Shown piece after piece: positions 1,203 to 63,690 of a DNA stretch of 64,000 bases (position 1 is its first letter; every line of letters starts with the position of its first letter). The stretch comes from an uncultured Verrucomicrobiae bacterium. GTDB taxonomy: Bacteria > Verrucomicrobiota > Verrucomicrobiia > Limisphaerales > JAFGQR01. Under the pieces are notes generated by a model. It did no database searches. It was not told the origin of the DNA and saw nothing but the letters and a program-made list of their open reading frames with translations. Both the position numbers and the translations under genes were made by a program. Where the stretch lies: contig CAWBHS010000049.1 of NCBI GenBank assembly GCA_963788655.1, forward strand, positions 160,001 to 224,000, read 5' to 3'.

Positions 1203-3206
1203 ATGCACCGCCACCATCGCACTGTATTTGCGTGCCCGCGATTTGCTGCTGGAATTTCGGTATTGAAGGGTCAGCGGCTGCTTGCGGGCGTGGCGTTGTG
1301 CTTGGGGTTGCTCGCCCTGGACAGTTCCGCCCAGATTGATGATTCGGCTAAAGTTGCTTTGCCACCAGGCACCCCGCGACTGGAGGATTTGATCAAGACA
1401 CCGATTGTCACCACCCCCTCGAAATTCGAGCAAAAGACCACCGAAGCTCCCTCCTCCGTCACCGTCGTTACGGCGGACGACATCAGGAAATACGGCTACC
1501 GCACACTCGCGGATTTATTGCGGGCAGTGCCCGGTTTGTATGTGAGTTATGACCATAATTATTCCTACCTCGGCTTTCGGGGTTTCAACCGGGGCGACAT
1601 CAACAATCCGAACAACCGCGTGCTGCTGCTGGTTGATGGTCACCGCATCAACAATGATCTGACCGACGGCGCTTACCTGGGCACGGCGTTCATTTTGAAC
1701 GTGGACCTTATCGAGCGGGTCGAGATCATCGAGGGGCCGGGCTCGGTGCTTTACGGCAACAACGCGTTTTTTGGCGTGATCAATGTGGTCACCAAGAATG
1801 GGCGGCAGTACCAGTACGGCGAAGCTTCCGGCGAAGCGGCGAGCTACGACACCTACAAAGGCCGCGTGACCGTGGGCCACTGGTGGACCAATGGTTGGGA
1901 ACTCCTGCTTTCCGGAACACTGTACGACAGCGAGGGGCCCAATCTGGGAGTGCCGCGCCTGGACGACGACAGTTATGGCAGCTTCTTTGGCAAAGTGCGC
2001 TACCGCGACTTGACCCTCGAAGGGGCCTTCATCCGGCGCGACAAGGGCAATCCCACCTCGCTTTTTCTGGCGCCGCCCGGTGATCCGCGACTGCGCACGG
2101 TGGACGACCGTGGTTTTGTGAACCTGAAATACAACCACGATTTTACCGACGTGATGGAAGTTACCGCCCAGATCTATTACGACCGCAATGATTTTACGCT
2201 CGACGTGCCCAATGGCCCGGGATTCACCTCCCAATGGTTGCGCGAAGGCGAATGGTGGGGCGCCGAATTGCAATTGACCAAGCGGTTGTTTGAACGGCAC
2301 ACCTTCACCTTGGGCGCCGAATATCGCGATGATTTTCGACAAAACTGGGAAATCCCAAACGTCACCAACTGGTTTGGCAAAACCAGCAATCACGGCGTTT
2401 ATCTGCAAGGAGATTTTGGCGTCCTCACCAATCTCCATCTCAGCGCCGGGATTCGCTATGATCAGTATGGAGATTTGGAACCCACCTGGAACCCGCGTCT
2501 GGCCCTGATCTGGAATCCCTACCGGCGCGCGACCATCAAAGCGATCTACGGCACCGCCTTTCGCGCGCCGAGTTTTGTGGAGCCGATCATTGCGTATTCC
2601 GGATCGGAACTGATGCCGGAAACCATCAAGACCTACGAACTGATTTATGAGCAGGGCCTCGGACGCCATGTGCGCGCCTCGGTCACGGGCTTTTACAACC
2701 GGATTGATGGGCTCATCGTCTTTTCCGAAACCGCGCGCAACGAAAACCAGGATGTCGAGGCGCTGGGCGTCGAGACGGCGCTTGAGGGGGTTTGGGCCAA
2801 CGGCTTGCGCGGGCGGATCAGCTATACCTATGCGCAGGCGCGGGACCGGGATACCCACCGCATCCTGCCGGACTCCCCACAGCACCTGGCCAAGGCGAAC
2901 CTGATTGTGCCGCTTTACCAGGACAAGGTGTTTGCCGGACTTGAGTATCAATACACCAGCACCCGCTCAACCTTGAAGCTTTTGAATGGCGGACCATACA
3001 CGGTGCCGGGCGAAGACGCTCCGGACTACGGGGTGTTCAACGTTACGTTGTTCAGTCAGAACCTGCTGAAAGGGCTGGAGGTTTCCGCCAGCGTTTACAA
3101 CCTGCTGGACAAACGGTATGCCGATCCGGCAACCGCGCACCATGAGCAGGATCTCATTTATCAGAATGGCCGGACTTTTCAGGTGAAACTGCTTTATCGC
3201 TTTTAA
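1203..3206 (+). CDS. TonB-dependent receptor (plug + barrel)
   Basis: Plug motifs APSSVTVVTADDI, LLVDG, IERVEIIEGPGSVLYGNNAFFGVINVVTK; VYNLLDKRY; terminal Phe; hydrophobic signal. Start uncertain. Confidence 0.95.
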   Translation: MHRHHRTVFACPRFAAGISVLKGQRLLAGVALCLGLLALDSSAQIDDSAKVALPPGTPRLEDLIKTPIVTTPSKFEQKTTEAPSSVTVVTADDIRKYGYRTLADLLRAVPGLYVSYDHNYSYLGFRGFNRGDINNPNNRVLLLVDGHRINNDLTDGAYLGTAFILNVDLIERVEIIEGPGSVLYGNNAFFGVINVVTKNGRQYQYGEASGEAASYDTYKGRVTVGHWWTNGWELLLSGTLYDSEGPNLGVPRLDDDSYGSFFGKVRYRDLTLEGAFIRRDKGNPTSLFLAPPGDPRLRTVDDRGFVNLKYNHDFTDVMEVTAQIYYDRNDFTLDVPNGPGFTSQWLREGEWWGAELQLTKRLFERHTFTLGAEYRDDFRQNWEIPNVTNWFGKTSNHGVYLQGDFGVLTNLHLSAGIRYDQYGDLEPTWNPRLALIWNPYRRATIKAIYGTAFRAPSFVEPIIAYSGSELMPETIKTYELIYEQGLGRHVRASVTGFYNRIDGLIVFSETARNENQDVEALGVETALEGVWANGLRGRISYTYAQARDRDTHRILPDSPQHLAKANLIVPLYQDKVFAGLEYQYTSTRSTLKLLNGGPYTVPGEDAPDYGVFNVTLFSQNLLKGLEVSASVYNLLDKRYADPATAHHEQDLIYQNGRTFQVKLLYRF

Positions 3207-3272
3207 CCATTGCCGCATTTTCTCATGCAACAATCAGATGCCAAGTTGCGTAAAAACGGTTACCTTCAACCG

Positions 3273-5639
3273 ATGAAACCACCTCCATTTCCACTCTCGC
3301 TCCGCCGTGTTCGCCACGGGCGCTCCGGGAACCGACCGGGTTGGCTGTTGCTCGGGCTGGTCCTTCTTTGGCTGGGTTGCGCGGCCGGGGCCTGGGGCGA
3401 CGAGAATCCCTCCCCGGGCACCCCCGACATCCGCACACAGCCGCAAAGTGTCAATGCGACACCCGGCAGTCAGGTGACGTTCTCATTGGTTGCCAACAGC
3501 ACCTTTGCCATGACGTATCAATGGCGGTTCCTGGGCAAAGACATTCCCTACGCGACCCAATCCTCACTGACCCTGGCGAATGTGGATGCCAGCCTGGCCG
3601 GGGCCTATTCGGTGGAGGTTCGGAATTTCGCCGGTCCAACGGTGAGTGACAACGCGATCTTGCGGATCCACACCACCCGGCAATTGCTCAGTCTGCAGCC
3701 CATTGAAATTCCCGAATTCGGCCCGGCGGAGCCGCCCGCTTCACCGCTGGTCGTGACCAACCTGCCCGGTTTCGTGGATGAGGTTACAGTGAAGGTGTTT
3801 GGCTTCTCGCATGCGTCGCCCGACGATGCGGACATCCTGCTGGTGGGCCCGCGCGACACCGCGGTGTATTTGATGGCGGACGCCGGGGGTGACGATGGCG
3901 TTAGCAACGCTCTGCTGACGTTCCGCGATGCCGCTCCGGCTCCAGTGCCGGACGCCGGGCCGTTTGGTACAGGCTCGTATCAACCTGCCAATTATTTACC
4001 GAACGATGAGGGGCCAACCAACGGCACTGGCTGGCAAATGTCGGCCAACCTGGGCGTGTTCACCAACCTGGATGCGAATGGCCGGTGGAACTTGCGGGTC
4101 ACCGATGATACCCCGGAACACGGTGGGCGCATTAGTGGTGGCTGGGGCTTGGAGTTGACGCTGGCGCTCCCGGAAACCAACGTTTTCATGGTCAACCTGT
4201 GCGGTACCAATGTGACTCCGGCTTCGTCCTCATCGGCCAGCGGCTTCGGATTGGTGCGCCTCGGGGTGGATGGCTCAGTGAGCTATAGCATCGAGATCAA
4301 CGACCTGAGCAGTGAATTCATGGAAGCCGACATTCATGGGCCGGCGGGCAGCGGAACCAATGCTCCCAATCTATTTCGCGTGGACTATTATCCGCACACC
4401 GTTCAGTCCGGCACCTGTGCGGGCAGCCTCGCCGCTTACCTTGGCTCGCAATTGTGGCAATTGCGACAGGGTCTGCAATATCTCGACGTGCGTACCGCCA
4501 ACTTCCCCGCCGGCGAAATCCGCGGTCAAATCGTGCCCTTACCGTTGCCCAAAATTATCGATCCACCGCGGCCGCAATCCGTCCATTTGGGCCACGCGGC
4601 GACTTTCCAGGTTGCCGCCACCAGTCCCGCGCCATTGACCTATCAGTGGCGCTTCAATCGCCAGGCCATTCCCAACGGAACCAACGCCACTCTGACGCTC
4701 GCCAATGTGCTCCAAACCAACGACGGTTTCTACGACGTGGTCGTGAGCAACGCGGCAGGCTCCGCGGTGAGCGTCGTGGCCAAATTGACTGTGCAGCCCA
4801 TTGATTTGATGCCGATCGCCCTGGGTACGCAGGGAACGCAACTCCTGGATAATTATGGCCCGCTCGAGCAAGGCCACAACACTCCTTGCGGTTGGACGGG
4901 TACTTCCGCCCGCTGGCTGGGGCTGCTGCCCGAAACCGAGGGACACTTGATCGTGGACACTTTGGGCAGCAGCATCGACACGATCCTAACGGTTTATACC
5001 GGTGCCGACCAAAACCAGGTCCAATATGTGGATTGCGACGTGGGGGGCGCCGGCGGTGGGCAGAGTTATTGGGACACCGTGGCCACCGGGAATCCTACGA
5101 GCATTGTTCTCGAAGTCGATGGGCAGAATGGTCTCCAGGGCAGCCTGAACGTGAACTGGCGTTTTGGTTGGGATCCCACGATCCTTGATCAACCGACCAA
5201 TTTGACCCTCCTTGCTGGCAGCCCGGCGCAGTTCAACGTCCAGGCCAGCGGCGTGCCGGAACCCCAATACCAATGGCATTTCAATGGCGAAATCATTCCG
5301 GGGGCCACCGAGACCAATTACACGATTGATGCGGCCCTGCCCGAACGGGCTGGCCGCTACGAGGTCATGGTCAGCAATTTCATGGGCACAGTGATGAGTT
5401 CTCCCGCGGAACTTGTGGTGTTGGAACCATCCGTCCTTACTGTCCCGGTATTCGCCGAGGGCGCTTGGCATTTGCACGTCACTGGCGCCCCCTTAGTGAA
5501 GGTGGTGCTGGAAGGGTCGCCGGACCTCAAGCATTGGACCCCGGTGGCCACGAATCAGGTGACCACCGGGGGAGTGGATTTTGTGGATCCGGTGACGGAT
5601 CAAGAACCGCACCGTTTTTATCGCGCGTGGACGTTCTGA
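3273..5639 (+). CDS. Secreted multidomain protein: Ig, proprotein-convertase P-like domain, CHRD, Ig, PPC-like domain, Ig, C-terminal FYR domain
   Basis: Signal peptide; YQW..G.YSVEV Ig motifs; DADILLVGP/GRWNLRVTD; ADIHGPA...YLDVRTANFPAGEIRGQI (CHRD); VDTLGSSIDTILTVYTG; ends RFYRAWTF. Start could be 3225 or 3210. Confidence 0.88.
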   Translation: MKPPPFPLSLRRVRHGRSGNRPGWLLLGLVLLWLGCAAGAWGDENPSPGTPDIRTQPQSVNATPGSQVTFSLVANSTFAMTYQWRFLGKDIPYATQSSLTLANVDASLAGAYSVEVRNFAGPTVSDNAILRIHTTRQLLSLQPIEIPEFGPAEPPASPLVVTNLPGFVDEVTVKVFGFSHASPDDADILLVGPRDTAVYLMADAGGDDGVSNALLTFRDAAPAPVPDAGPFGTGSYQPANYLPNDEGPTNGTGWQMSANLGVFTNLDANGRWNLRVTDDTPEHGGRISGGWGLELTLALPETNVFMVNLCGTNVTPASSSSASGFGLVRLGVDGSVSYSIEINDLSSEFMEADIHGPAGSGTNAPNLFRVDYYPHTVQSGTCAGSLAAYLGSQLWQLRQGLQYLDVRTANFPAGEIRGQIVPLPLPKIIDPPRPQSVHLGHAATFQVAATSPAPLTYQWRFNRQAIPNGTNATLTLANVLQTNDGFYDVVVSNAAGSAVSVVAKLTVQPIDLMPIALGTQGTQLLDNYGPLEQGHNTPCGWTGTSARWLGLLPETEGHLIVDTLGSSIDTILTVYTGADQNQVQYVDCDVGGAGGGQSYWDTVATGNPTSIVLEVDGQNGLQGSLNVNWRFGWDPTILDQPTNLTLLAGSPAQFNVQASGVPEPQYQWHFNGEIIPGATETNYTIDAALPERAGRYEVMVSNFMGTVMSSPAELVVLEPSVLTVPVFAEGAWHLHVTGAPLVKVVLEGSPDLKHWTPVATNQVTTGGVDFVDPVTDQEPHRFYRAWTF

Positions 5640-5656
5640 AGACGCTCTAACCGGCC

Positions 5657-6241
5657 ATGCGACTCAGGGGCATTTCCACAGCGAGTTGGCTGGTTCGTGT
5701 ACTGGCCCTGCTGCCCTTGTTCGCCCTCAGTCCAGGAGCCGGCGGCGCAGAAACGCCAACCTACACACCCTACCAGCACCGCGCCTGGTACATCTATCTG
5801 ATCTCCCAATACACCCAGTGGCCCGACTCCGCGTTTACGAATAGTCCTGCTCCCTTTGTGCTGGGAATTCTGGGGGAAGACCCGTTCCACAAAGACCTGA
5901 ATCTCATCATCGACAAACCGGTCAAGGGTCATCGGCTCAAGGTCCGTTATTTCAAACGGGGCGAGGTCATCGAGGGCTGTCACGCGCTCTACATAGCCGA
6001 CTCCGAAACCGACCAATTGGGGAAACTCCTGCCCCCGTTGGCGCACCGGCCGATTTTGACGTTTGGGGAAATGAAAGGCTTCTTGAAACACGACGGCATC
6101 GTGAAGCTTTGGGTGCGACCGGAAACCAGCGACCAAGGGTATCTTTACTTCCAAATCAACAATACGGCGGCGGAACAAGCCCGACTGCGCATCAGTTCGT
6201 ACGTGCTCAAACTGGCCAAGCCCGAGCCGCCCTCTCCATAA
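5657..6241 (+). CDS. YfiR family (DUF4154) periplasmic regulator
   Basis: Signal peptide; QWP..AF...PFVLGILGEDPF; CHALYI; PILTFGE; FQIN..AA..ARLRISSYVLKLA. Confidence 0.9.
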   Translation: MRLRGISTASWLVRVLALLPLFALSPGAGGAETPTYTPYQHRAWYIYLISQYTQWPDSAFTNSPAPFVLGILGEDPFHKDLNLIIDKPVKGHRLKVRYFKRGEVIEGCHALYIADSETDQLGKLLPPLAHRPILTFGEMKGFLKHDGIVKLWVRPETSDQGYLYFQINNTAAEQARLRISSYVLKLAKPEPPSP

Positions 6242-6247
6242 CCCGCC

Positions 6248-8539
6248 ATGAAAGCCCTGCAAAATCTTACGCTCCAAGCGAAGCTGACCGCGGTTTTGAT
6301 GCTGACCAGCTCCATCGCGCTGGTCGGCGCCTGTACGGCGTTCGTCGTCTATGAATGGTTTGCTTCCCGGAACCAGGTACAGGTGGAAATTGGCACCCTC
6401 GCCGAAATCGGAGCGCGGGAATGCACCGCGCCGGTCAATTTCGATCGGGAAGAAGAAGTAACCCCCATCCTGGCCAATCTGAGCATTGACCCGCAAATTG
6501 TGGCCGCTTGCATTTACCGGCAGGGCCAGGTCTATGCGAAGTACCCGGGCACCGCCAGCGATTCCCTGTTCCCGGCGCGGCCCCCAACGACGAACCAAGG
6601 CAGCTTTGGCCCCAACACGTTTTCGGTAACGCGCCAGCTTCTTTGGCCGGACGGGAAGCCCCTCATCGGCATTGACGGCAAGCCCCAATTCATTTACGTC
6701 CGGGCCACCCTGGACAAGATGTATGCCCGGCTGTGGCGTTACGTCGGCATCGCCGTCGCCGTTGCTCTCTTTGCGGCTATCGTTGCTTACTTGATCGGCG
6801 CGCGTTTGCGAGGATTGATTTCTCATCCGATCCTGGCCCTGGCGAACACCGCACGCCGGGTTTCGGAACACAAGGATTACTCCGCCCGCGCCGCCGCGGT
6901 GCCCAGCCGCGATGAAGTGAGTGTATTGGTCAACTCCTTCAATGACATGCTGGTCCAGATCCAAAAACGCGACCACGAACTCCGGGAAGCGCGCAACGCC
7001 GCCGAGCGGGCCAACCAGGCCAAAAGCGCCTTTCTCTCCTTCATGAGCCACGAACTCCGCACCCCGCTCACCGCCATTAACGGCTTCAGCGAAATGCTCA
7101 TCATGGATCTGGAAGCCGAAGGCCGCGCGGAATGGCGGGAAGACGTGCGCCGCATCCACGAGTCGGGCAAATACCTGCTCGAACTGATTAACGATATTCT
7201 GGATCTCTCCAAAATCGAAGCCGGCAAAATGGAAGTCCACGTCGAAACCTTCGATGTGTGCCGTCTCATTCGCGAACTGACCGACGTGTTGCGCCCCCTG
7301 ATCGAAGGCAAACGCAATCGGTTGGTTGTGAACTGTCCGCCCACCATTGGCGCCATGCACGCCGATATGATCAAGGTGCGCCAATGCCTGCTGAACCTGC
7401 TGAGCAACGCCAATAAATTCACCGAACAGGGCACGCTCACGCTCACCACGGAACGGATCACCCGGGACGCGACGGACTGGTTGATCTTCCGCGTCCAGGA
7501 CACCGGCATCGGCATGAAGCCGGAGCACCTGCAAAAATTGTTCCGCATGTTCACCCAGGCCGGCGACCGCACCTCGCGCCGATACGGCGGCACCGGACTG
7601 GGCCTGGCGCTCACCAAGCAATTCTGCAAAATGATGCACGGCGATGTGAGCGCCCAAAGCCAGCCAGGCCAGGGTTCCACATTTACCATTGAACTGCCGG
7701 CCAGCACGCCGGATCAAAGCGGCGCAGGATCCGGATCGGCGGCGCCCGCTACGCCGTTGGCGCCGCCCACTCGGCCGCCCGGCGACTGTTTGCTTTCGAT
7801 TGACGATGATCCAGCGGTCCACGAGTTCCTCCGCGAAGCCCTGCAAAATGAGGGTTACCATCTGGCCTTTGCCCGGAGCGGCCCGGAAGGTCTGCGGCTG
7901 GCGAAGGAATTGCAGCCGGCCATTATCACGCTGGACGTGATCATGCCCGAAATGGACGGTTGGGTCGTGCTGGCCCTGCTCAAAGAGGACCGCGAGCTGG
8001 CGCACATCCCCGTGATCATGCTGACCGTCAAGGAACAGCAGGATTTTGCCTTTGCCATGGGCGTGGCCGATTACCTGCACAAGCCCATCGATCGCGACCG
8101 CCTCCTGGCGACACTCGAACAACATCGCCGACCCGCCCACCCGGCCCCGGTTTTGATTGTCGAGGACGACCCGCACATGCGCGAAATGCTCCGGCGCATG
8201 CTGGAACGGGATGACTGGCAGGTGGCCGAAGCGGAAAACGGTCTGGTCGCGCTCGAGCAAATCAAACGCACCCCACCGGCGATGATCGTGCTCGATTTGA
8301 TGATGCCCGTGATGGACGGTTTCCAAATGGTGGCCGAACTGCAAAAGCACGAAGACTGGCGTCACATCCCGATTGTGGTGGTCAGCGCGAAGGAACTGTC
8401 CGCGGACGACCGTCGCCGCTTACAGGGCCACGTCCGGACCATTCTCCAAAAAGGCTCCTTTGGCCGCGAAGAACTAATGCGCGAGGTCAAACAAACCGTC
8501 CGCCTTTTCCTGGCCAGCCAAGAACGAAGTAAACACTAA
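6248..8539 (+). CDS. Hybrid sensor histidine kinase (TM, CHASE8-like, TM, HAMP, HisKA, HATPase, two REC)
   Basis: MSHELRTPL; NLLSNANKFT; DTGIGM; GGTGLGL; receiver motifs LDVIMPEMDG and LDLMMPVMDG. Confidence 0.95.
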   Translation: MKALQNLTLQAKLTAVLMLTSSIALVGACTAFVVYEWFASRNQVQVEIGTLAEIGARECTAPVNFDREEEVTPILANLSIDPQIVAACIYRQGQVYAKYPGTASDSLFPARPPTTNQGSFGPNTFSVTRQLLWPDGKPLIGIDGKPQFIYVRATLDKMYARLWRYVGIAVAVALFAAIVAYLIGARLRGLISHPILALANTARRVSEHKDYSARAAAVPSRDEVSVLVNSFNDMLVQIQKRDHELREARNAAERANQAKSAFLSFMSHELRTPLTAINGFSEMLIMDLEAEGRAEWREDVRRIHESGKYLLELINDILDLSKIEAGKMEVHVETFDVCRLIRELTDVLRPLIEGKRNRLVVNCPPTIGAMHADMIKVRQCLLNLLSNANKFTEQGTLTLTTERITRDATDWLIFRVQDTGIGMKPEHLQKLFRMFTQAGDRTSRRYGGTGLGLALTKQFCKMMHGDVSAQSQPGQGSTFTIELPASTPDQSGAGSGSAAPATPLAPPTRPPGDCLLSIDDDPAVHEFLREALQNEGYHLAFARSGPEGLRLAKELQPAIITLDVIMPEMDGWVVLALLKEDRELAHIPVIMLTVKEQQDFAFAMGVADYLHKPIDRDRLLATLEQHRRPAHPAPVLIVEDDPHMREMLRRMLERDDWQVAEAENGLVALEQIKRTPPAMIVLDLMMPVMDGFQMVAELQKHEDWRHIPIVVVSAKELSADDRRRLQGHVRTILQKGSFGREELMREVKQTVRLFLASQERSKH

Positions 8540-48300: not shown

Positions 48301-50011
48301 GCTCAACGACGCGCCAACGCTCGATCCCATACCGGATTTGGGGCTCGCCGAAGACGCCGGGCAGCAGATCGTCCAGTTGACCGGCATTGGCTCCGGTGCA
48401 TCCAATGAAAACCAGCCGCTGGTCGTCCGCGCCGTTTCCAGCAATCCCGCGTTGGTGCCGCATCCCACGGTGAACTACACGAGTCCGAATGCGTTCGGCT
48501 TCCTGACGTTTGTCCCGGCAGCAGACGTCACCGGCACAGCCACCATCACAGTGACGGTCAACGATCTTCAATCGCAGAACAATCTGACGGCGGTGCAGTT
48601 CGAAGTCACCGTCACCGGCGAAAACGATCCGCCCGTCATTTCGGAAATTGTGGACCAGGTGACGTCCGAAGACACCGTCAAGGTCGTCGCTTTCAATGTC
48701 CACGATTCGGATAATGCCGCCACTGACTTGACGGTAGCCGCGGTCTCGGTCAACACCGAACTGGTGCCGAACGCCAACCTGACCATCACCGGCACCGACG
48801 CCAACCGCTTCCTGCAAATTACACCAGCCCCAAATCAGACCGGCACGGCGGCCATTGCCGTCACTGTTACTGACCCGGCCGGAGCCACAGCGAGTGCTCA
48901 GTTCAACTTAACTGTGGAAGCCAATGGTGACCTACCCGTCATTTCTGCCATTCCTGACCAAACCATTGCGGAAGACGCGGTCGCCGGACCGCTGGATTTC
49001 ACCGTCAGTGACGTGGAGACCGCGACTGAAAACCTGGTCCTCACTGGCCATTCGTTGAATCCTCGCCTGGTGCCCGATGAAAATATCGTCTTCGGCGGCG
49101 TTGGCGGCAGTCGGACCGTGACCGTCACCCCCGCTGCCGACGAGTCGGGCTCGACCTTGATCACTGTGACCGTGACCGACGAATCGGGCAGCGCGGCTAG
49201 TTCAAGTTTTCTGCTCACTGTTTCGCCGGTAAATGATCCGCCGACGATCGAGGGTCCGACCGATCAAACCATGGACGAAGATACGACTGCCGTCGTCGAA
49301 TTTACCGTGAACGATTCCGAAACTCCGGCGGAGGTGTTGCTGGTCACGGTTACCTCCTCGAATCCATCCCTCGTTCCTGAACCGCAGTTGGTTCTCGGCG
49401 GCACCGGCGCCCTTCGCACGGTCAGCATCTCGCCCTTGCCCGACCAATTCGGCTCGGCCACGATTACGCTCACCGTCAAGGATGCCGCGGGCACGACAGC
49501 TCAGGCTTCCTTCGCGCTTACGGTCAACAACCGTTCCGATCTGCCCCTGATCGTGACCCAGCCACAAGCTCAGACCACGACCCTGGGCGGCACGGCCACG
49601 TTTACGGTGACCGCCACTGGTGCCGCGAACCTGCAATACCAATGGCGCCACCAGGGCGTGGAATTGCCGGGCCAAACGGCCGCTACATTGGTGTTGAACA
49701 ACGTTCAAGCGGGTGATGCGGGCGAGTATTCGGTAATCGTCACCAGCGTGGAAGGTTCGGTGACCAGCGACTCGGCGCAATTGCTGATTCTGGTACGACC
49801 CGAATTGGTGCAGATCACGCACGCGGCCAATACGACCCAGGTTTCCTTCACAACCGAGACGGGACACGCTTATACCGTCGAATACACCACTTCCTTGACG
49901 AATCCGGTGTGGACTCCGCTGAGCAGCGGCGTCGCCAGCAGCCAGCTCATGAGTGTTACCGATCCGGAAGCCGTGGAGACGACGCGGTTCTATCGGGTTC
50001 GGGCTGACTAG
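27302..50011 (+). CDS. Giant secreted adhesin-like protein 1 (~7,570 aa after repairing 5 single-base indels): DUF11, 2 P-domains, many Ig, 4 GEVED, cadherin-like repeats, HYR-like, lectin-like inserts, C-terminal FYR domain
   Basis: Six overlapping ORFs join mid-domain at ~31776, 36360, 40250, 45152 and 45863. Only the first has a signal peptide; only the last has the terminal RFYRVRAD. Confidence 0.88.
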
Positions 50012-50285: not shown

Positions 50286-53200
50286 ATGAAAAAACGTACG
50301 ATGAATCCTCTCGCGAGGCGGCGTGATTCAGCAGGCTTTAAGGTGTTGTCCTTGGTTCTCCTCCTGGCGTGGGCGGCCCATCCCGACCAGGCCAACGCCG
50401 GCACCATCAAACCGACCCCGGTCGCGGTCACCCGAAGCCGGACGGTCCGGTTGAGCACCCTGGAGAAATCGGCGGCCAGCAACTCTCTCAGAACCGTCAC
50501 CCGCGAAACTAAAATGTCTCGCGCCGGCACGCCGCCCAAAGCCCCCCGTCAGCTCTTGAACGCGACTCACCCGGCTGGATCGGTCAGTGGTTTTGCCCCC
50601 AGCAGCGGGGGCCCGGATTTGCCCACGGCAATGAGCTCATTGGAATTGCCGCTGACTCCGTTTCCGTCCGCTTCCTTTGAGGCGTTGCCGGATGACGGCA
50701 CGGCCTACGTGCCGGACATCGCGGCCGCGGTGGGCCCCGCGCATTTAATGGTTGCGTTAAACTCCCAAGTACGGATCCAGAACCGGCAAGGCCAGCCGCT
50801 CGGTCCGGTTTCGCTCGACGATTTCTGGGCCGGCTTGGGCAATCCTTCCTGCTCCCAGCCGCGGCTGCTATACGATCCTTATGGGCAACGTTGGGTCTTC
50901 ATTGCCAATGCCAATCCCGGCGAAACCAACGCCGGTCTGGTGGTGGCGGTCAGTCAGACCACCGATCCCACCGGCAACTGGTATCAACACTTCATTTCCA
51001 CGACCACCCCGGTGGATGTCTATGCCGACTGGCCCACCCTGGGATTTAACAAGGACTGGATTGCCGTGCAGGCCAACATGTTTTACCGGGCGACTGACGA
51101 GTTCTATTCCTCTTACGTTTATGCGTTGAACAAGACCAACCTATACGCGGGCCACGACGGTCAACCGCTACGTTTCGCCCTGCTGGAGACTCCGGACGAC
51201 TATCCAGGCGGTTCCCAAATGCCGGCTTACACCTATGACGAAGACTCGGACAAACTCTATTTTGTGCAGTCCGCGTTTGGGGATGATGGCACGGGTTTTG
51301 GTGCGCTGCGCATTTTCAGCCTCGAAGGCTCCCCTCCCAACGCTCCCGTTTTTAACACCACTGACAGCCGGGGCGATCTGGGCCCCGTGGCGTACAGTTC
51401 AGATACTTGGAGCGAAACGCCGCCAACGGGAGTGGATAATTTCGCTCCCCAGCTGGATCTTCCACAAAACTCTCCACTGGCGACGATGATCGCATTCAAA
51501 AGGTCATCTTACCGGGCCAATACACTCTGGGCGGTTCACACCGTTTATGTGCCGGCCGGTGGCGCCCCCGATCGGGCGATCGTCCAGTGGTGGACGCTGA
51601 CCCCGACCCTCGGGGATGTCTTGGAACAAGGCCGCGTGGACGCCGGTCCAAACGATCGCTTCTTTACCTTTCCGAGCATAGCCGTAAATCGAGATTTCGA
51701 TTTGATGATCGGTTATTCGCGGTTCGACCGATCCCATTATCCCAGCGCGGGCTACGTGTTCAGCGGAGGAGGGGATCCGCCCGGTTCAACCCGGGGTGAC
51801 CACACCATCCGCTATGGCGAGGCCCCGTACGCGGTTACCAATTCTTCCGGCGTGAACCTGTGGGGCACCTACAGTGCGACCGTTCTCGATCCCCTGAACG
51901 ACACCGAATTCTGGACGGTGCAGGAATTCGCTGCCCTTCCCGATGCCGACGGTGATCATTGGAAAACGTGGTGGGCGCGCATCTCCCCGGACGTGGATCT
52001 GGCCGTCACCATTCAGGATTCGCCCGATCCTGTGTATGCCGGCGCCGAACTGACCTATACCATCATCGTAACCAATACCCTCCCACGACAATCCCCCGGC
52101 GTGGTGGTCACGCACACCTGTCCCCCAATTCCACATTCGTTTCGGCTGCGGTGCCAGGCGGCAGTTACACCGTTGCCAATGGCGTGGTCACCTGCAACGT
52201 GGGCCTGCTGGGCGATCTCGACGAGCGCGAAATCACCGTGGTGATCCGTCCCGCAACGCAGGGTCAAATTACCAGTACCGTCACCGTGTCAGCAAACGGA
52301 GCGGACCTGAATTCCGACGACAACTCCGCCTCGGCCATAACCACCGTGCAACCATCCGCCGACCTCGCTGTGTCCGTGGTTGATTCGCCGGACCCGGTGG
52401 CCGTCGGCCAGGACCTCACTTACACGGTGACGGTTACCAATCGCGGCCCTGCCATCGCCACCGGAGTGACGCTCACGGACACGCTCCCCGCCAACGCCAC
52501 CTATGTGTCCAGCGTCGCGAGTCAAGGGGCGTGCAGCCGAAACGGCAATCTCGTGACTTGCAATCTCGGCAATATCAACAATGGCGCACTGGCCACGGTG
52601 ACCATCGTGGTGCGTCCCACCGCCTTGGGAACGCTTAACAATCAGGCGCAAGTCACCGCCACCTCGATGGATCTGGTTGCGAGCAACAACACCGCCACCA
52701 GCACCACGCAGGTCAATTCCCCGCCCACCATTTCGTCCATCGGACCGCGGACCATCAACGAGGACACGGCCCTCAGTGCCGTGCCGTTTACCGTGGGCGA
52801 CTCGGAAACCCCCGCCAGCGCGCTCGTCGTTACCGCGTTCTCCTCGAATCCACTTTTGGTTCCCAACGGCAATTTGGGGGTGGGTGGTAGTAGTGCCAAT
52901 CGCACCTTGACGGCGACGCCATTGCCAAACCAATTCGGCACCACCACGATTTCGGTCGTGGTCACCGATACCGGCGGAGCTACCGCCACCAACAGTTTTC
53001 TATTGACCGTCATGTCGGTGAACGACCTGCCAACCATTACCGACATCGTCAACCAAACCATTGATGAAGACACCACCTTGGCTCCGGTGGCGTTTGTGGT
53101 GGGCGACGTCGAAACCGCTCCGGGCAGCTTGTTTGTCTCGGCCACGTCGTCGGATACTACGCTGGTCCCCAACGCGAACATCACCCTGACCGTCAACGGC

Positions 53201-56200
53201 GCCAACCGCACGATCAGCATTTTGCCCGCGTCGAATCGCAACGGCACCACCGTGATCACGGTGACTGTGTTCGACGGCACTGCGGCCAACAATGATACCT
53301 TTGTCCTCACCGTCCGGCCGGTAAATGATCCCCCCACCATCTCATCTCTCTCCAATCGCACCGTCAATGAAGACACGCCCACGGGTAATATCTCGTTTAC
53401 CATTTCCGATCCCGAGACCGCTGCGGGCAACCTGATTTTGACCGGCACTTCGAGCAACAAGACCTTGGTGCCGGATAACCAGATTGTCTTCGGTGGGAGC
53501 GGCGGCAACCGCACCGTCAATGTTATCCCCGCCAGCAATGAATCGGGCACCACCGTGATCACGTTGAGTGTCCGCGACCCGGAGGGCTTATCGACCAATG
53601 CCACGTTCACGCTCAACGTCACCGCTGTGAACGATCCGCCGACGATCGACAACCTCGTCAATCGCATCATCAACGAAGACGGCGGCCAGCAAACCATCAA
53701 CTTGTCCGGTATTTCCAGCGGTGCGGCCAATGAACACCAAACCCTCACCGTCACCGCGAGCTCGAGCAATCCTGGCCTGATTCCCAATCCCGCCGTCAGT
53801 TATGCCAGCCCCAACGCGACCGGCACGTTGACTTTCACCCCGACTGCGAATCTCTACGGCAGCGCCATCATCACTGTTACCGTCCAGGACGGCGGGGCGC
53901 TGAACGGTTCAACGGTCAAGACCTTCACGGTGACCGTGGTGCCGGTCAACGATCCGCCAACATTGAACACGATTGCCGATGTGAACCTCCTGGAGGACGC
54001 GGGCGCTCAAGCGGTTCCTTTCAACGGCGTCAGTTCCGGCGCGTCCAACGAATCGCAAACGTTGAATGTGACCGCGACTTCCAGCGATCCCACCATCATC
54101 CCGCATCCCAATGTCGTCTTCCAATCACCCAACAGCTCCGGCGTATCGAGTTTCACCCCGGTGGCCAATGCTTTTGGCACCGTAACCATTACGGTGACGG
54201 TGAATGATCAGGGAGCTTCCAACAATGTGGCCACCCAGACATTTCACGTCACCGTGGCGCCGGTCAACGATTTCCCCACGTTGACCGCCCTGGGCAATGT
54301 CACAGTGGACGAAGATAGCGGCGAAGACACGGTCAATCTGTCCGGGATCACCAGTGGTGCCTTGAACGAGAATCAAACCCTGACCGTCACCGCCACGTCG
54401 GGTAACTTCGGTCTGATTCCGTCGCCGACCGTGGTTTATGTCAGCCCCGGGGCCGCCGGCAGCCTGAAGTTCACCCCGGCACTCAACCAATCCGGCACCG
54501 CGACCATCACCGTTACGGTCAACGACAACGGCGCCTCCAACAACCTGGTCACTCGCAACTTCACCGTCACGGTGAATCCGGTCAACGATCCGCCGACGCT
54601 CAATCCGATTGCCGACGTCATTATCGCCGAAGACTCGGGCACGCGCCTGGTGCAATTCAATGGTGTCTCCAGCGGTGCCCCTAACGAAAGCCAGACCTTG
54701 AACGTTACGGCCACCTCGAGCAATCCCGCCATCATCCCCGATCCCGCAGTGTCCTACACCAGCCCGAATGCCAATGGCACCCTCTCGTTCGCTCCCCGCC
54801 CCAATACCAGCGGGATGGTGACCATCACGGTAACCGTCAATGATGGCGGCACGGCCCATAATCTTTTTAGTCGCTCGTTCACGGTGACGGTCAGCAACGT
54901 CAACGATCCGCCCACCATTACCAGCGTTCCCGATCAAACGATCGACGAGGACACTTCCACAGCGGCTTTGCCGGTGACGATCGGCGACCAGGAAACCCCA
55001 GCCAGCGCGCTGACATTTATTGCCAGTTCCTCCAACGAAGAATTGATCAGCAGCCAGGACATTCTGCTCCAGGGTTCCGGCAGCAACCGGACCGTCACCG
55101 TCCGCCCCCTGACCAACCAGTTCGGGTTCGCCACTGTTTCCCTGTTGGTCTTTGATGCTGGCGGCGCCTACAATTTCACCGCCTTCAACGTGACCGTTCT
55201 GCCGGTCAACGACCTGCCCACCATCAGTTCATTGGCCGACCAAACTGTTGCCGAAGGTGAGTCCGCCGGCCCCCTGGCCCTGACTGTGAGTGACGTGGAA
55301 ACCCCGGTGGGTAACTTGACGCTCAGCGGCACTGCGGCCAATCCGACATTAGTGCCTTCCGCCAACATCACCTTCACCGGCAGCGGCGCCAACCGGTTGG
55401 TGACCATCCGGCCCGCGGCCAACCAGTTCGGGGTCACCACGGTCACCCTCCGGGTCAACGACGGCTTCGACACGGTCGGCACGATGTTTACGCTGACCGT
55501 CAAAGGCGTTAATGTGCCCCCCACGATCACCAGCCTCGCCAATCAAACGACGGACGAAGATGTGCCGACCAACCCGTTAGGCTTCACCATCGGTGATCGA
55601 GAAACGCCGGCGACCGACTTGACCCTCAAGGCCAACTCTTCGAATCCCACGCTTATCCCCTCGAGCGGCATCGTGTTTGGCGGCTCGGGCAGCAACCGCA
55701 CCATTACGATCAAACCCGCCACCAACCAATTCGGTTCCGCCACGATTATCCTGAGCGTCGAAGACAACGAACCGGTCTGGACTTCCGTCACCAACATTCC
55801 CAACATCAACGGGAATCAGCAGTACGTTACCGTGACGGCCTCCAAGCGTATGCAAGTATTTCGGCTGGCCTCCACGGTCGGCGCTGCCTCGCCCCCGCGG
55901 CTGAGCATCCAACCAAATGGATCCGACCTCAGAATTTCGTGGCCGTATCCGGCAAGTGGCTGGGTGCTCGAAACGGCTCGCACCGTCGGCGCTCACAACA
56001 CGACCAAGTTCCAGGTGACGGTTAATCCGATCAACGACCTGCCGGTCATCACCGTCCCAGCCGCTTTGGCCATCGCTGAAGATGGCGCCACCTCGCTGTT
56101 GCCCTTCACGATTGGTGACGTGGAAACCCCGGCCGCCAATCTGACTGTTGCCGCCGTTTCTTCCAATCCCACTCTGGTTCCGGCCGGCGGCATTGCGGTG

Positions 56201-59200
56201 TCCGGTTCCGGCAGCAACCGCACCGTGCGCGTCACTCCCGCCGCCAATCAATTTGGCACGGTCAACATCACCCTAAGCGTCACCGACGGCGAAGGGGCCA
56301 AGACCGACGCGCCGTTCGCGGTTACCGTTTTCCCGGTCAACGATGCGCCAACGCTGAACGCTCTGGTGAATCTGACCATCGACGAAGACGCACCCCAACA
56401 GACCGTCAACTTGGCGGGCATCACCAGTGGCGCCGCCAACGAGGCCCAAACCCTGGTCGTCATCGCCAATTCTAGCAATCCCGCTTTGATCCCCACGCCC
56501 GCGGTGGTTTACACCAGTCCCAATAGCACTGGTTCCCTGCGCTTTACCCCGGCAGCCAATGCCAACGGAACCGCCACGATTACCGTCACCGTCAACGACG
56601 GCGGCACGAGTAACAACCTTGTGACGCGAACGTTCGACGTGACCGTCAATTCCGTCAACGACCTGCCCACCGTCACCAGCATCGCCAATCAGCAAACGTT
56701 GGAAGACACCCCCACCGCTGATCTTCCCTTCACGATTGGCGATGTGGAAACGGCGGCGGCCAACTTGACGGTGACGGCCACTTCGTCGAACACCAGCTTG
56801 ATCCCGCCAAGCGGCATTGTCTTGGGCGGCTCCGGCAGCGCGCACACCGTGAAGTTGATCCCGGCCGCCAATCAATTCGGCACCGCCCAGATCACTATCG
56901 AGGTGACCGATGCGCAAAACGGCAAGAGCAGTACGACGATCCAATTGACCGTCGTGCCCGTAAATGACCCGCCGACGCTGACGGCACCGAGCAACTTCAC
57001 GATTCAGGAGGACGCCGGAGAACAAAGTGTCACCCTGACCGGATTGACCCCCGGGCCGGCCAATGAAACCGGCCCGCTAATCGTAACGGCAACGAACAGC
57101 AACAGCGCGTTACTGACCGGCCTGACGGTGGATTACGCCAATCCCGCCACCAGCGGCACCTTGCATTTCCAAACGGTGACCAACGCGAACGGCACCGCCA
57201 CAATTACCGTTACGGTCAACGACAGTGGCGCCAGCAACAACCTTGTGACGCGCACGTTCACGGTAACCGTAACGCCGGTCAATGACCTGCCCACGATCTC
57301 CAGCCTGGCCGACCAGAGCACGGATGAAGACGTGCCGACACCGGCGATGGCCTTTACCATCGGCGACATCGAAACGGCTGCGAGCGCGCTGACCGTGACC
57401 GGCAGTTCTTCCAACCCCGTCTTGGTTCCCAACAGCGCTATTGTGCTCGGTGGCACCGGTGCCAACCGGACCGTCACCATCCGGCCAGCCACCAACCAAT
57501 TCGGCACGGCAACTATTACTCTGCGCGTGGAAGACGATGAAGGCGACATCGCCACCATGGACTTCGAATTGACTGTTAATTCGGTGAACGACGCACCCGT
57601 AATCACTGCCCCGGCCGATTTGATCATCGCCGAAGACGGCGCGACCTCCCTGCTGCCCGTTACCGTTGGCGACGTGGAAACGTCCGCCGCCAACCTGAAC
57701 GTCAGTGCAGTCTCTTCCAATCCCACCCTGGTGTCCGCTGGCGGCATCGCGTTGTCCGGCTCTGGCGGCAACCGCACCGTCCGGGTCACGCCGGCGGCCA
57801 ACCAATTCGGTACCGCCAATATCACCTTGACCGTCACCGACGGCGATGGCGCCAAGACTGACGCCGCGTTTGCTCTCACGGTTTTCCCGGTCAATGATGT
57901 GCCGACGCTGAACGCTCTGGGGAATCTAATCATCGACGAAGACGCTCCTCAACAGACCGTCAACTTGGCGGTCATCACCAGCGGCGCCGCCAACGAAACT
58001 CAAACCCTGGTCGTGTCCGCCAATTCCAGCAATCCCGCTTTGATCCCCACGCCCGCGGTGGTTTACACCAGTCCCAATAGCACTGGTTCCCTGCGCTTTA
58101 CCCCGCAAGCCAATGCCAACGGAACCGCCACGATTACCGTCACCGTCAATGACGGCGGCACGAGCAACAATATTGTGACGCGAACCTTCGACGTGACTGT
58201 CAACGCGATTAACGATCTGCCCACCATCACTGGCATCGGCAATCAGCAGACGCTGGAAGACACCCCCACCGCCGATCTTCCCTTCACGATTGGCGATGTG
58301 GAAACGGCGGCGGCCAACTTGACGGTGACGGCCACTTCGTCGAACACCAGCTTGATTCCCCAAAGTGGCATTGTCCTGAGCGGCTCCGGTAGCGCGCGCA
58401 CCGTGAAGTTGATCCCGGCCGCCAATCAATTCGGCACCGCCCAGATCACTCTCGAGGTGACCGATGCGCAAAACGGCAAGAGCAGTACGACGGTCCAATT
58501 GACCGTTGTGCCGGTAAACGACCCGCCGACGCTGACAGCTCCCAGCGACCTGACCATCCTGGAAGACGCCGGTCCGCAATCAGTCGCGTTGACTGGTCTG
58601 ACCGTTGGGCCTTCCAATGAAGCCGGCCCGCTAATCGTGACGGCAACCAACAGTAACAGTGCAGTACTGACCGGCCTGACGGTGGATTACTCCAATCCCG
58701 CCACCAGCGGCACCTTGCATTTCCAAACGGTGACCAATGCGAACGGCACCGCCACCATCACCGTCCTCGTCAATGACAGCGGTGCCAGCAACAACATGGT
58801 AACCCGCAGCTTCACGGTAACCGTAACGCCGGTCAACGATCTGCCGACAATCACGGCCATCGCCGACCAGACCACTGACGAAGATGTGTCAACCCCGGCG
58901 TTGGCCTTCACGATCGGTGACGTGGAAACCGCGGCCGGCGCCCTGACGGTTACCGGCAGTTCCTCCAATCCCGACTTGGTGCCGCCCGCCGGCATCGTGC
59001 TCGGCGGCACCAGTGCCAGCCGGACTGTTGTCATTCGCCCGGCGACCAACCAATTCGGCACCACCACAATCACTCTGCGTGTGGAAGACGGCGACAGCGG
59101 CAGCGTTACCACAGACTTCGAACTGACCGTCAATGCCGTCAACGACGCCCCAACGATCACCCAACTGCCCGACCAGGCGACCGACGAAGACAGCCCGAAA

Positions 59201-62200
59201 GCTGTGCCCTTTGCGGTGACCGATGCGGAAACGCCCCTGAACTCGCTGGTGCTTCAAGCGACGTTGTCCGACCAGACTTTGGTGCCCAACGCGAACCTGA
59301 CGTTCAACGGTACCGGTGCCAACCGCATCTTGACCATCACCCCAACCGCCAATCGTCACGGCACCACGACGATCCACTGGCCGTGACAGACGGGGATCAA
59401 GCCACGGCGGACACCACCTTCGTTTTGACCGTCCGGCCGGTTAATGATCCGCCCACTTTGAATGCCATTGCCGACGTGACCATTGACGAAGATTCCGCCA
59501 CGCAGACCGTCAGCTTTTCCGGCGTCGGTTCGGGCGCGCCGGATGAAGTCCAATCCCTGGTGGTCACCGCCACCACGTCCACCCCGGCGTTGGTAAGCGA
59601 TCTGACGGTCACCTATGCCAGTCCGGCGGCCACCGGCATGTTGAGTTTTGTGCCCGTAGCGAATGCCAATGGTCCGGCTTCCATCACGGTTACGGTCAAT
59701 GATGGTGGCGCGACGAACAACACCTTCAGCCGCACGTTTACCGTCCACATCAACTCAATCAATGACCTGCCTTCCATCGCGGACATCGCGGATGTCCAGA
59801 CCACCGAAGACGTGCCGGCCGGGCCGATTCCGCTCACCGTCGCCGATCTGGAAACGCCGCTCGCCAGCCTGGTCGTGACCGGCAGTTCGTCGAATCCCAG
59901 CCTGGTCAACAGCGGCAGTTTCTCGTTTGACCTCAGCGGCGCGAATCCGACCGTCACCATCACCCCGCTGGCCAACCAAAGCGGCCAAACTACTCTGACG
60001 ATCATGGTCACCGACGGCGACAACGCCTCCGCCAGCACCAGTTTTGAACTGACTGTTTTGCCCGCCAACGATGCGCCGACTATCTCGAACATCGCCGACC
60101 AGACCATCCCGGAGGATACCTCGTCGCCGGCCATCGCCTTCACCCTATCCGATCCGGAATCGCCGGCGACGGACTTGGTGGTGTTTGCCAGTTCCGCTGA
60201 TCCGTCGATCCTCCCACCGTCGGGCCTGACCCTGGGCGGCAGCGGTGCCAACCGCACCATCATCCTCACTCCGCTCTCCAATCGCACCGGTGCCGTAACG
60301 GTCACCATTACCGCTGTCGATCCGCAAGGCGCCTGGAGCAGCCGCAGCTTTGGTGTCAATGTGACCGACGTCAATGATGCGCCGGTGATCTCCAGTCTGC
60401 CGGCCCAGACGATTCTCGAAGATACCGCCACCGGGCCATTGAGTGTGGTGGTGGGCGATCTGGAAACCAGCGCCAATGCGCTAGTGGTTACCGGCGCCTC
60501 CTCCAATCCGTCGTTGGTGCCGAACGGCAACATCGTGATCGGCGGCACGGGCCCGAACCGCACCGTGGTGGTCACTCCCGCCGCCAACCAATTCGGCAAT
60601 GCGACCATCACGCTGACCGTCGCCGATGGTCAAAACGGCACCGCCACCAGCCAATTCGTGCTGACCGTGGCCCCGGTCAATGACCTGCCCACGCTTAATC
60701 CGCTCGTGGACATGGCGCTGAATGCCAATGTGGGTCCGCAAACGGTGCTGCTTTCGGGCATCAGCTCCGGCGCGCCGAATGAATCCCAAACCCTGTCCGT
60801 CACCGCGACGTCCAGCAATCCCGGCGTTATCCCGCAACCGACGGTGAATTACACCTCGCCGAACACCGGCGGCAATCTGCAATTCACCCCCGTCCACAAT
60901 GCGGCCGGTTCGGCAACCGTCACTGTGACCGTGAGCGATGGAACCGGCGCCGGCAGCACTGCGTCGCGCACCTTTACCGTCACGGTGTCAGCGCTCAGTG
61001 GCCCACCGACGATTGCGGACATTCCCGATCAAACGACTGACGAAGACACTCCGCTTGCCGTTCCCTTGCTGGTCAATGATTCCGAAACCGATCCCATGAA
61101 CCTCGAAGTGGTCGCGTTTTCTGGAAACACCACCCTGATTCCCAACGACCACATCAGCGTTCACGGCGCGAGCACCAATCGAGTTCTCGTGCTGGAACCG
61201 GCGGCCAATTTGTCCGGCAGCAGCATCATTACGGTGATCGTCAGCGACGGTTCGGAATCCGCCATTCAGACGTTCAATCTCACCGTGCGGCCGGTGAACG
61301 ATCCGCCCACGATCAACCCGATGAATGACGTCGTGCGCACTTCCGGTTTCGGGCTGTTTAGCGTCGGTTTCATCGGGGTCGGTTCCGGTGCCGCCAATGA
61401 ATCGCAGACCACTTCCGTGACGGTTGTCTCCAGCGATCCGAGTCTGGTGCAGGTAAACACGGTCAACTATACCCCCGGCGGCAGCAGCGGTAGTGTCCGG
61501 TTGACCGGCGGGACGAAGTCAACGGGCACCGCGGATATTTCCATCACCGTGGACGATGGCGCTACCGCCAACAACACGACCGTGCGCACCTTTACCATTT
61601 ACGTCATGCCCGCCGCGAATTCGCTTCCGTCCCTCAGCGGGCTGTCCAGCCAAACCATCAACGAGGATACCTCCACCGGCCCAATTCCCTTCACCATCAG
61701 CGACGCGCAGACGCCGGCCGATCAATTAATCCTTTCCGCCGAGTCGCTGGATCCGACGCTCGTGCCGGACGCCAACATCTTCTTCGGCGGCAGCGGGGCC
61801 AACCGCACCGTCACCATTACCCCGGCCCCCAACGAATCGGGCACCGTCACGATCAAGATCAAACTGCGCGATCCGGATAACGGCTACCGGTACTACAGCC
61901 CGGTCGTGCAGGTGAATGCGGTGAATGACCCGCCGTTCATTGCCGCCATCGCCGATCAATTCACGACGCGCGACACCCCCACCGGCCCGATCACCATTGC
62001 CATCGGGGATCTGGAAACGCCGGCAACGGATCTGTCCGTACAAGCCACCTCCTCCAACCCCACGCTGGTGCCCAACGCCAACATTACCTGGGGCGGCAGC
62101 GGCACCAACCGGGCGTTGAAGATCACCCCCGCGTCCGGCCAGATCGGGACGACGACCATCACCGTCACGGTGGGCGATACCGAGTTGAACGCCACCCGGA

Positions 62201-63690
62201 ATTTCAAGCTCACCGTGCAGCCGTCCAGCGCGCTGCCCACCATCTCCGACCTTGGCGACCAAACCACTTACGAAGCCACAGCCACGCCTCCGATTGGGTT
62301 CAGTGTCAGCGATGCGGAAACGCCGGCCGCCGATTTGACGGTGTCCGCCACCTCCTCCGATTCCAATCTGGTGCCACCCGGCGGCTTTGTCTTCGGCGGT
62401 AGCGGGACTTCCCGCACGCTCACCATTACTCCGGCCGCGGGTCAGACCGGCGCCGCCACGATCACGGTAACGGTGCATGACGGCAATGGCGGCACCGCCA
62501 GTGACAGCTTCTTGCTGACGGTCCAACGGGTGAATGTGCCGCCGACCTTGAACCCCGTAGCCGAGCTCGCACTGCGTGAAAATGCCGGGAGCCAAACAAT
62601 TACCCTGAGTGGCGTCGGTCCCGGCGCGGGCGACCAGAATCAAACGGTGTTCATCGTGGCCAGTTCGAGCAATTTCGCCCTCGTGCCCAATCCAGTCGTG
62701 GAATACACGAGCCCGAACGCCACCGCCACCCTCCGGCTCACGCCGGCACCGTATGCGACTGGCACCGCGCAGATCACGGTCACGGTCAATGATGGCCAAC
62801 CGCAGAACAATATCACCACGCGCGTCTTCACGGTGACGGTGATTGCCGCGCCGACCATTACGGTCAATCCGGTGCAAGTAACCGAGGAAGATACAGTGGC
62901 TTCAGCGATTCCATTCGTGGTCAGCGATCCGGTGACGCCCGCGGCCAATCTGACCGTGGCGGCTTCCTCCTCCAATCCCGCTCTGGTGCCCAGTGGGAAC
63001 ATCGTTCTCGGCGGCTCCGGCGCCAATCGCACGATCACCTTGACTCCGCTGGCCAACCAGTATGGCAACACCCGCATCAGCCTCGTGGTTACTGCGGCGG
63101 GCAACGTCCGGGCCACGAACAGTTTCTGGTTGTTGGTCGCGCCGGTGGACGACCTGCCCACGCTCGATCCGTTGGTGGATATTACTGATTACTTGAATGC
63201 GGCCGACATCGTGGTGAACCTCACCGGCGTCGGACCAGGCCCCGGCGACCCCATCCAAACGTTGCGGGTCACCGCCACGTCGGACAATCCGGTGTTCATT
63301 TCGAACCCAGTGGTGAATTACGTCAGCCCGAACAGCACCGGCAGTCTGACCCTGGTGGTGCCAGCCGATACGGCCGGTACCGCGAACATCACCGTGACCG
63401 TCGATGACGGTGAGTTGGTTAGCCACGCGTTTTCGCGGACTTTCACGGTAACCATTGAAAACTTCGTGGCCCCGCCGGAGTTGCGCATCGAACCCCTCGG
63501 GCAGACGGTGAAGCTTTCCTGGCCGTATCCCTCCAGCGGCTACGAATTGGAGCACGTTGTCGGCACGGACAATCCCTGGAACTGGATGCCGATGCCAGGC
63601 ACGCCTGAGGACGATGGCGACCGGAAGTTTCTAATCGTGCCGGCCACCGAACCAATGGAATTGTATCGGCTGTCCCGGCCCGCCCGCTGA
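50286..63690 (+). CDS. Giant secreted adhesin-like protein 2 (~4,470 aa after repair): N-terminal globular head, 2 DUF11, long cadherin-like repeat stalk, C-terminal LYR domain
   Basis: Three ORFs join mid-domain at ~52117 and ~59375; signal peptide; VNDxPT/EDT repeats; ends ELYRLSRPAR. Confidence 0.88.
56030..59137 (+). repeat. In-frame tandem duplication of a 1554-bp (518-aa, five-domain) block
   Basis: Long identical nucleotide runs at 1554-bp offset, e.g. 56480 vs 58034. Confidence 0.85.

Follow-up and report, generated by a model that had tools for sequence, protein, structure and literature searches.

What is the module of about 70 residues in which three large proteins encoded in this stretch of DNA end, and what might it do for them? 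In the window, by which we mean the whole stretch of 64,000 nucleotides, the three copies lie on the forward strand at 5421 to 5639 (six-strand, FN3-like, ending RFYRAWTF), 49796 to 50011 (ending RFYRVRAD), and 63472 to 63690 (of a "WP" subfamily, ending ELYRLSRPAR). Their translations are as an earlier note on this DNA gave them, and each terminates at a stop codon. Pairwise identity among the three is only 18 to 21% (15/70, 14/67, and 12/65). The kinship proposed for them is borne out by a leave-one-out profile of 147 C-terminal copies from elsewhere in the same genome, with every window ORF excluded, which finds all three at E values of 9.6e-11, 4.3e-14, and 4.1e-4, respectively. At E<=0.01 this profile has 217 matches in real ORFs versus 0 in reversed ORFs, and the WP subfamily, which includes the copy at 63472 to 63690, is tied to the other tails with a profile-profile probability of 98.9%.

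Iterated profile searches, seeded with the three window tails and run over the genome's full six-frame set of 101,079 ORFs, yielded 213 copies in 212 ORFs, one of which has two. The consensus is P.L.I...G.v.l.(F/W)...pG..Y.vE.s..L...W..l.......g...ftD......RFYRv..P, with the W and R present in 94% of copies. Neither Pfam nor NCBIfam has a family for the three window tails, and PF18962, TIGR04183, and TIGR04131 do not match them at E<=0.1. In the ESM Atlas the tail matches three Verrucomicrobiota clusters at 0.96, with no family attached, taxa that place the genome in this phylum, and a search of the literature outside subscription papers returned no description of it. The tail is a genuine, large, uncatalogued terminal domain.

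All three carriers are encoded on the forward strand. The first (3210 to 5639) has a signal-peptide-like N-terminus, with a probable start at 3273, followed by three Ig domains, a P-domain, CHRD, and the tail. It sits between a TonB-dependent receptor gene and a pair encoding a small exported protein and a hybrid histidine kinase, and the four genes form one run (1203 to 8539) which we take to resemble the receptor-YfiR-like-kinase signalling cassettes, with a tail protein inserted. The second carrier is a single adhesin-like giant gene of about 7,570 codons (27194 to 50011), present as six overlapping ORFs that begin at 27194, 31758, 36373, 40271, 45121, and 45950 and are separated by five frameshifts; it comprises DUF11, Ig, GEVED, and P-domains and cadherin-like/tandem-95 repeats. 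The third, of about 4,470 codons (50286 to 63690), is spread over three ORFs (50286, 51959, and 59383) with two frameshifts, and has a signal peptide in its first ORF, an unannotated N-terminal domain, DUF11, and cadherin-like/tandem-95 repeats. We infer that each giant is continuous across its frameshifts. The splits are probably assembly indels, since 54 of 758 conserved proteins are likewise split over two adjacent ORFs here; a single contig, 151 bases long and of depth 2.4, is a base short at 45865, within one junction of the second carrier, which is a weak indication. The two giants adjoin, and any annotation of the current assembly will fragment both.

Two statements of the earlier note need correction. 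It had given all three proteins signal peptides, and for the first this stands, as tail and signal-peptide-like N-terminus share an ORF; no such segment is present in the two ORFs that stop at 50011 and 63690, and because both giants are split by frameshifts their signal peptides are found on upstream ORFs (in the second carrier, a signal-peptide-like segment in the first ORF only). It had also called the three architectures different, which overstates the case for the two giants, both of which have cadherin-like/tandem-95 and DUF11 repeats. A Pfam and NCBIfam scan of six long ORFs, with the four middle ORFs of the first giant set aside, agreed with the note in finding no RTX, autotransporter, LPXTG, or PEP-CTERM family, and gave only sub-cutoff T1SS-143 repeat matches (E of 0.02 to 0.03).

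Genome-wide, 188 of the 213 copies lie within 15 residues of a stop codon, against a chance expectation of about 24 of 187. The expected restriction to C-termini therefore holds for most copies, but not for 25 of them, of which 19 are complete and 7, judged by eye, stand directly behind a signal peptide. The 133 C-terminal passengers fall into 106 families; the tail is present on only 22/87 and 7/16 large signal-peptide proteins, which weighs against the export tag considered below. A calcium-binding-type motif, DxDxDG..E..TDP, precedes 40 of the 213 tails. Tails also stand just ahead of a domain resembling the formylglycine enzyme (SUMF1-type, by eye; G000 C39:43867, C49:292904, C21:47236, and C78:3226) and ahead of an RHS-like core in C22:74970-82127. 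Repeat proteins are common among the carriers, and the W/R/E conservation of an FN3-type domain can be structural alone, so that the tail might be an end cap or folding aid for Ig/cadherin-like repeat chains, or else a passenger domain that moves about, and play no part in targeting. We regard this as very unlikely: the tail also terminates enzymes that have no such repeats, among them GH18, sialidase, sulfatase, and subtilase carriers, and such a role leaves the secretin gene order described below unexplained.

The domain extends well beyond this genome. Its profile matches 73 of 151 genomes sampled from the phylum, in which up to 38 copies were scored per genome, and at E<=0.001 it matches 88,012 of 1.84 billion cluster representatives, with some ordinary FN3 repeats among them. 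Two weak Opitutaceae-like matches that look like such ordinary repeats were dropped. Some other proteins carry tandem arrays of up to nine tails with no strand between copies; 138 of the 141 top-ranked representatives are multi-copy, in a ranking that favors multi-copy proteins. A 2.2-Mb cleanly assembled genome of another class, G089, was surveyed almost entirely and has 23 carriers, with the tail within 12 residues of the end in 21. By a home-made heuristic, 20 of the 23 are signal-peptide-like, whereas the share over the whole gene set is 26%, and transmembrane segments are absent from all 23, in keeping with the claim that the tail belongs to signal-peptide proteins. The corresponding score in the assembly studied here is 69/198, because frameshifts fragment its carriers. 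There is no overlap in G089 between tail carriers and 10 PEP-CTERM-like proteins, and the tail has neither the C-terminal helix nor the basic tail of PEP-CTERM or sortase-type signals. At one G089 locus (L097:10347-11671, equivalent to G089:C4:50347-51671), a 107-residue lipoprotein consists of the tail domain alone; its gene forms a two-gene operon with that of an unannotated exported protein, and no secretion machinery was found there.

An AlphaFold2 model of the second window copy (49793 to 50008; 43 alignment rows) has a pLDDT of 93 and predicts a sandwich of six strands, at residues 5-11, 14-20, 26-32, 41-47, 52-57, and 66-71, as expected of the beta-rich module first described. In structure searches the best matches are FN3 domains aligned across their first six strands: 2c4f_T (Z of 8.3, rmsd of 2.1, 67 aligned) and 3mpc_B (Z of 7.6, residues 6 to 77 of 96). 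The Fn3 domain of Pel3, 4u49_A, also matches (Z of 7.2, rmsd of 2.2, 65 aligned), at a level shared with many unrelated FN3 domains. Foldseek returned no match at E<=0.001, and there is a weak sequence match to 3mpc (E of 0.01). The FN3 domain (PF00041) has seven strands, A-B-E and C'-C-F-G, whereas the tail, which has the same topology otherwise, has six strands and no PF00041 match; it appears from the model to comprise strands A to F without strand G. The tandem arrays found elsewhere have no seventh strand between copies, and the six-strand unit therefore stands alone.

A fourth copy in the window (55769 to 55990, forward strand), overlooked by the earlier note, is circularly permuted, with strands C'-E-F followed by A-B-C; a permuted profile matches it over positions 2 to 70 of 71 at an E of 1.5e-13. 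It appears to be inserted in a cadherin-like repeat of the third carrier, within the loop that leads to the final strand of that repeat, and is the only permuted copy among the matches listed for ORFs of the same genome. The cut falls exactly in the C-C' loop, and both ends of the modelled fold lie at one pole, which would allow circular permutation. A WPYP stretch common to this copy and the terminal tail of the same protein suggests that it arose from a tandem duplicate. One DNA run (share of 0.06) has no read cover at 55778 to 56411.

The earlier note had supposed that the tail works like the C-terminal domain (CTD) of T9SS cargo, that is, as a C-terminal signal for an uncharacterised outer-membrane machine, which would here be a non-secretin translocon, possibly with cleavage. 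T9SS CTDs are beta-sandwiches of about 70 residues, single and terminal on many unrelated signal-peptide proteins, including giant adhesins. The tail is like the type A CTD of Bacteroidota (PF18962/TIGR04183) in size, predicted beta-sandwich, terminal position, and diversity of passengers; it is likewise terminal and single-copy on giant Sec-type proteins without barrels, and C25-family peptidases occur in two of five tail-bearing genomes. By membership, however, it is not a T9SS CTD. It has six strands ending at the F strand, it does not need the C-terminus, and the non-terminal copies, N-terminal ones among them, the tandem arrays, and the permuted copy speak against a CTD-like mode of working that needs a free C-terminus. 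PorV was found in none of the five genomes (our own being 86% complete), with a positive control in B. thetaiotaomicron; the SprA search was empty in all five, with no control genome positive either, and C25 peptidases are missing from three. No T9SS CTD is among the structural matches listed for the tail model, though such a listing does not exclude one. Nor is there a T9SS family or a candidate translocon among 91 low-copy envelope proteins common to G089 and this genome, which include BamA, Skp, LptD/E, TolC, TonB receptors, GspK, pilins, enzymes, and 8 unnamed proteins; the scan covered these 91 of 195 predicted envelope proteins of G089 with a match here, those with more than four matches, secretins included, having been left out, and such a screen would miss fast-evolving or unassembled genes. 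A signal of this kind thus seems unlikely to us, and gene order points instead to secretins.

Tail genes lie directly behind secretin genes far more often than expected by chance, a finding that is new here. In G089, a tail gene comes immediately after the secretin at four of five loci (one of the tails at an E of 2.8e-5): a PilMNOPQ operon and three orphan loci, the complete T2SS operon being the exception. The orphan loci hold Amuc_1098-type secretins, single or paired, with no other pilus gene adjoining (L041:4557-7837, L162:605-4075, and L086:12649-14298); some lack the N0 or TPR part and have long variable inserts in the secretin domain. Homologues of Amuc_1099 to Amuc_1101 were not found in G089 by blastp. 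In the genome of the window, three of eight secretin loci have a tail gene within two genes, namely a GspE-L-M-D cluster, an orphan PilQ-like secretin, and an operon resembling Amuc_1101-1100-1099-1098. As a baseline, other signal-peptide genes account for 10/301 cases in G089 and 68/1,317 in this genome. The last of these operons, on C64, best matches the Amuc_1101, Amuc_1100, and Amuc_1098 families, all below cut-off, and two tail genes follow it.

That arrangement is conserved in the order. Of 80 Amuc_1098-type loci from GTDB, 57 have at least 8 kb of DNA downstream, and 53 of these have a same-strand tail gene there; an upstream tail gene occurs in 0/45, and the baseline is 604/5,871. The 53 cases go back to a single operon handed down by descent, with the order secretin-[exonuclease]-A(tail)-M-B(tail)-coaE. 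The A(tail)-M-B(tail) block stands behind the MUL2-like operon throughout the order (L154, G000:C64:41483-58104), A and B belong to no Pfam family, and the block is possibly a pilus tip or surface complex. Most of the 20 listed loci of other lineages have the main MUL2 operon followed by coaE/rho and no tail gene, while G066 has one tail gene directly behind the main operon and G081 has two, by eye, after rho.

Recurrence elsewhere was gauged in 20 further genomes picked for moderate tail numbers. There, 97 rows were reduced to 85 secretin matches by dropping 12 that were partial, one half of a duplicate, or the first member of a pair; immediately behind 10 of the 85 stands a tail ORF, versus 0.55 expected; eight of the ten are in the genus of G089 and the rest in two further families. 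Among 74 metagenome loci, 47 have a complete next gene, which has a tail in 6 by profile and in 2 more by eye; the six are all close kin of an orphan secretin of G089, and PilM-operon loci have a tail in the next gene in 0 of 13. On a tree of 36 hand-picked secretins, with some long branches, the tail-neighbor label covers GspD, PilQ, and Amuc_1098 types and needs seven changes, at least five of them forced by strong branches. The link between secretin and tail genes arose five to seven times on this tree.

Several loci are of interest in their own right. L160 (G000:C38:12930-29585) contains a giant GspD-like secretin gene, in ORFs of 3,814, 261, and 1,524 residues, with many N-domain repeats and a small lipoprotein gene next to it. 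A frameshift-split gene in L161 (G000:C89:102009-106758) has an Amuc_1098-type secretin end, to which a BlaR1/M56-like N-terminus and a thioredoxin-like part appear to be fused. In the Opitutaceae-like genome G060, a 1,364-residue exported protein behind an Amuc_1098-type secretin (L291:8322-12413) has a different C-terminal domain, which may be the tag that this lineage employs in the tail's stead. Many Amuc_1099-like proteins in L273 to L290 have the DxDxDG..E..TDP motif; that motif, which precedes tails rather than lying in them, is all they have in common with tail proteins, and a tail inside the Amuc_1099-like subunit was ruled out (profile-profile probability of 0.4%).

Co-occurrence of secretins with the tail also speaks for a link, though weakly. 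An Amuc_1098-type secretin (E<=1e-40) occurs in 45 of 47 tail-positive genomes, and one of the two misses is G089, which nevertheless has five shorter secretins of this type; a GspD-type secretin likewise occurs in 45/47, and PF00263 in 20 of 20 tail-bearing genomes checked. Among 33 genomes first scored as tail-negative, two of which later proved to be carriers, the Amuc_1098 type is present in 24 and the GspD type in 20. Secretins are nearly phylum-wide, and their co-occurrence therefore discriminates little. 

The tail genes that recur right behind secretin genes suggest that the tail is likely a portable tag for secretin export, and on this genomic evidence we tentatively favor, as quite possible, a portable folded targeting domain for secretin-based systems (T2SS or type IV pilus-like), above all the MUL2/Amuc_1098 type. 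The outer-membrane machine foreseen by the earlier note would then exist, as the gene-order link indicates, but would not be an uncharacterised one: the putative partners are secretins of the known MUL2/Amuc_1098, GspD, and PilQ types. We count in favor of such a tag the precedent of PelI, in which an Fn3 domain has its T2SS secretion signal in the C-C' loop, a loop that touches both GspC and GspD (PMC7949064). As in PelI and Pel3 of Dickeya and Pectobacterium, where folded cargo is read by GspC/GspD, an FN3 fold here lies at the protein end. The PelI/Pel3 signal is described in the same paper as a composite of loops particular to one enzyme, whereas the tail is one homologous domain grafted on about 200 proteins per genome, for a function that is putative here.

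For a tail serving as such a tag, the passengers would be exported by Sec, and tail and passenger would fold in the periplasm. The folded tail would be recognized by the secretin, or by a GspC/PilP-like partner, through its exposed last strand or the C-C' loop, and a bead-like passenger would be threaded through the secretin channel across the outer membrane; no cleavage or sortase step would be required. Since recognition would fall on the folded domain and require no free C-terminus, the tail could also sit at the mature N-terminus. A complex prediction for the window tail with the periplasmic part (residues 1 to 566) of this genome's Amuc_1098-type secretin scored 0.00 twice, with controls that did not fold, and speaks neither for nor against such contact.

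Pilus operons often carry adhesin genes, and this could produce the secretin-tail adjacency alone, without recognition of the tail. The carriers next to secretins might then be pilus-associated adhesins, and the tail a binding or tethering module that holds enzymes and adhesins on the surface after export by another cue, its target being glycan, LPS, S-layer, or the outer face of a secretin or pilus, in the manner of SLH, dockerin, and choline-binding modules. We hold this possible if somewhat doubtful. The tandem arrays without a strand between copies, the lone lipoprotein, and the permuted copy inserted in a loop and cut in C-C' fit a binding module at least equally well. The N-terminal and internal copies and the conserved exposed-type W, R, and aromatic residues also speak for it, as does a faint resemblance in sequence to CBM32 and to the Fn3-like modules found in glycan enzymes. 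Against this, the tail is single in 211 of the 212 ORFs, its ligand is as yet hypothetical, and a generic wall-binding module would not be expected to sit so strictly beside orphan secretins as the tail does in G089 and related genomes. The tail could be both secretin tag and tether, provided that cargo remains attached to the secretin or pilus.

The MUL2 system invites comparison with the secretin tag we favor. MUL2 has been described as a type IV-like pilus by which Akkermansiaceae, where it is conserved, attach to glycans (PMC13174399); MUL genes are reported as required for mucin accumulation (PMC12418764), and Amuc_1098 as the most abundant outer-membrane protein of A. muciniphila (PMC4960237). 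The C64 locus of this genome is like MUL2 of Akkermansiaceae, in which Amuc_1098 stands with Amuc_1099 to Amuc_1102. In their accessible sections the MUL2 papers propose attachment and uptake, not protein export, mention no cargo domain, and have no counterpart to the orphan Amuc_1098-type secretins paired with tail genes in G089. Akkermansia-like genomes retain the MUL2 locus, and tails occur in only 3 of 61 sampled. Two complete tail-bearing genomes of this kind, G078 and G087, have only two secretins each, both Amuc_1098-type, and one and two tail proteins found, respectively. The G078 protein, read over its C-terminal part, is LamG-GH18-BACON-tail and is probably Amuc_2164 of A. muciniphila, an identity based on the secretin NCBIfam match, the architecture, and PMC8966484, which describes a GH18 with a mucin-binding module. 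Amuc_2164 is not listed in a supplement file of PMC4960237.

How secretin systems choose folded cargo is a long-standing open question because known T2SS cargo have no common sequence (PMC7949064). If our reading is correct, a domain that is homologous and portable would offer a first simple way into secretin cargo choice, testable by grafting, and it would identify the route by which a phylum that matters in soil, sea, and gut exports its large secretomes of glycan enzymes and adhesins. A bolder form, which we offer as conceivable and with more reserve, is that Verrucomicrobiota have a secretin system with a universal graftable tag, an FN3 domain with one strand missing, which the machine would supply or else hold the domain by, serving hundreds of enzymes and giant adhesins per genome, with some lineages duplicating orphan secretins beside single cargo genes. 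Were that so, MUL2 of Akkermansia would not only be a pilus but would export proteins too. Since the A. muciniphila-like G078 combines a tail protein with only Amuc_1098-type secretins, the claim is directly testable in a genetically tractable commensal.
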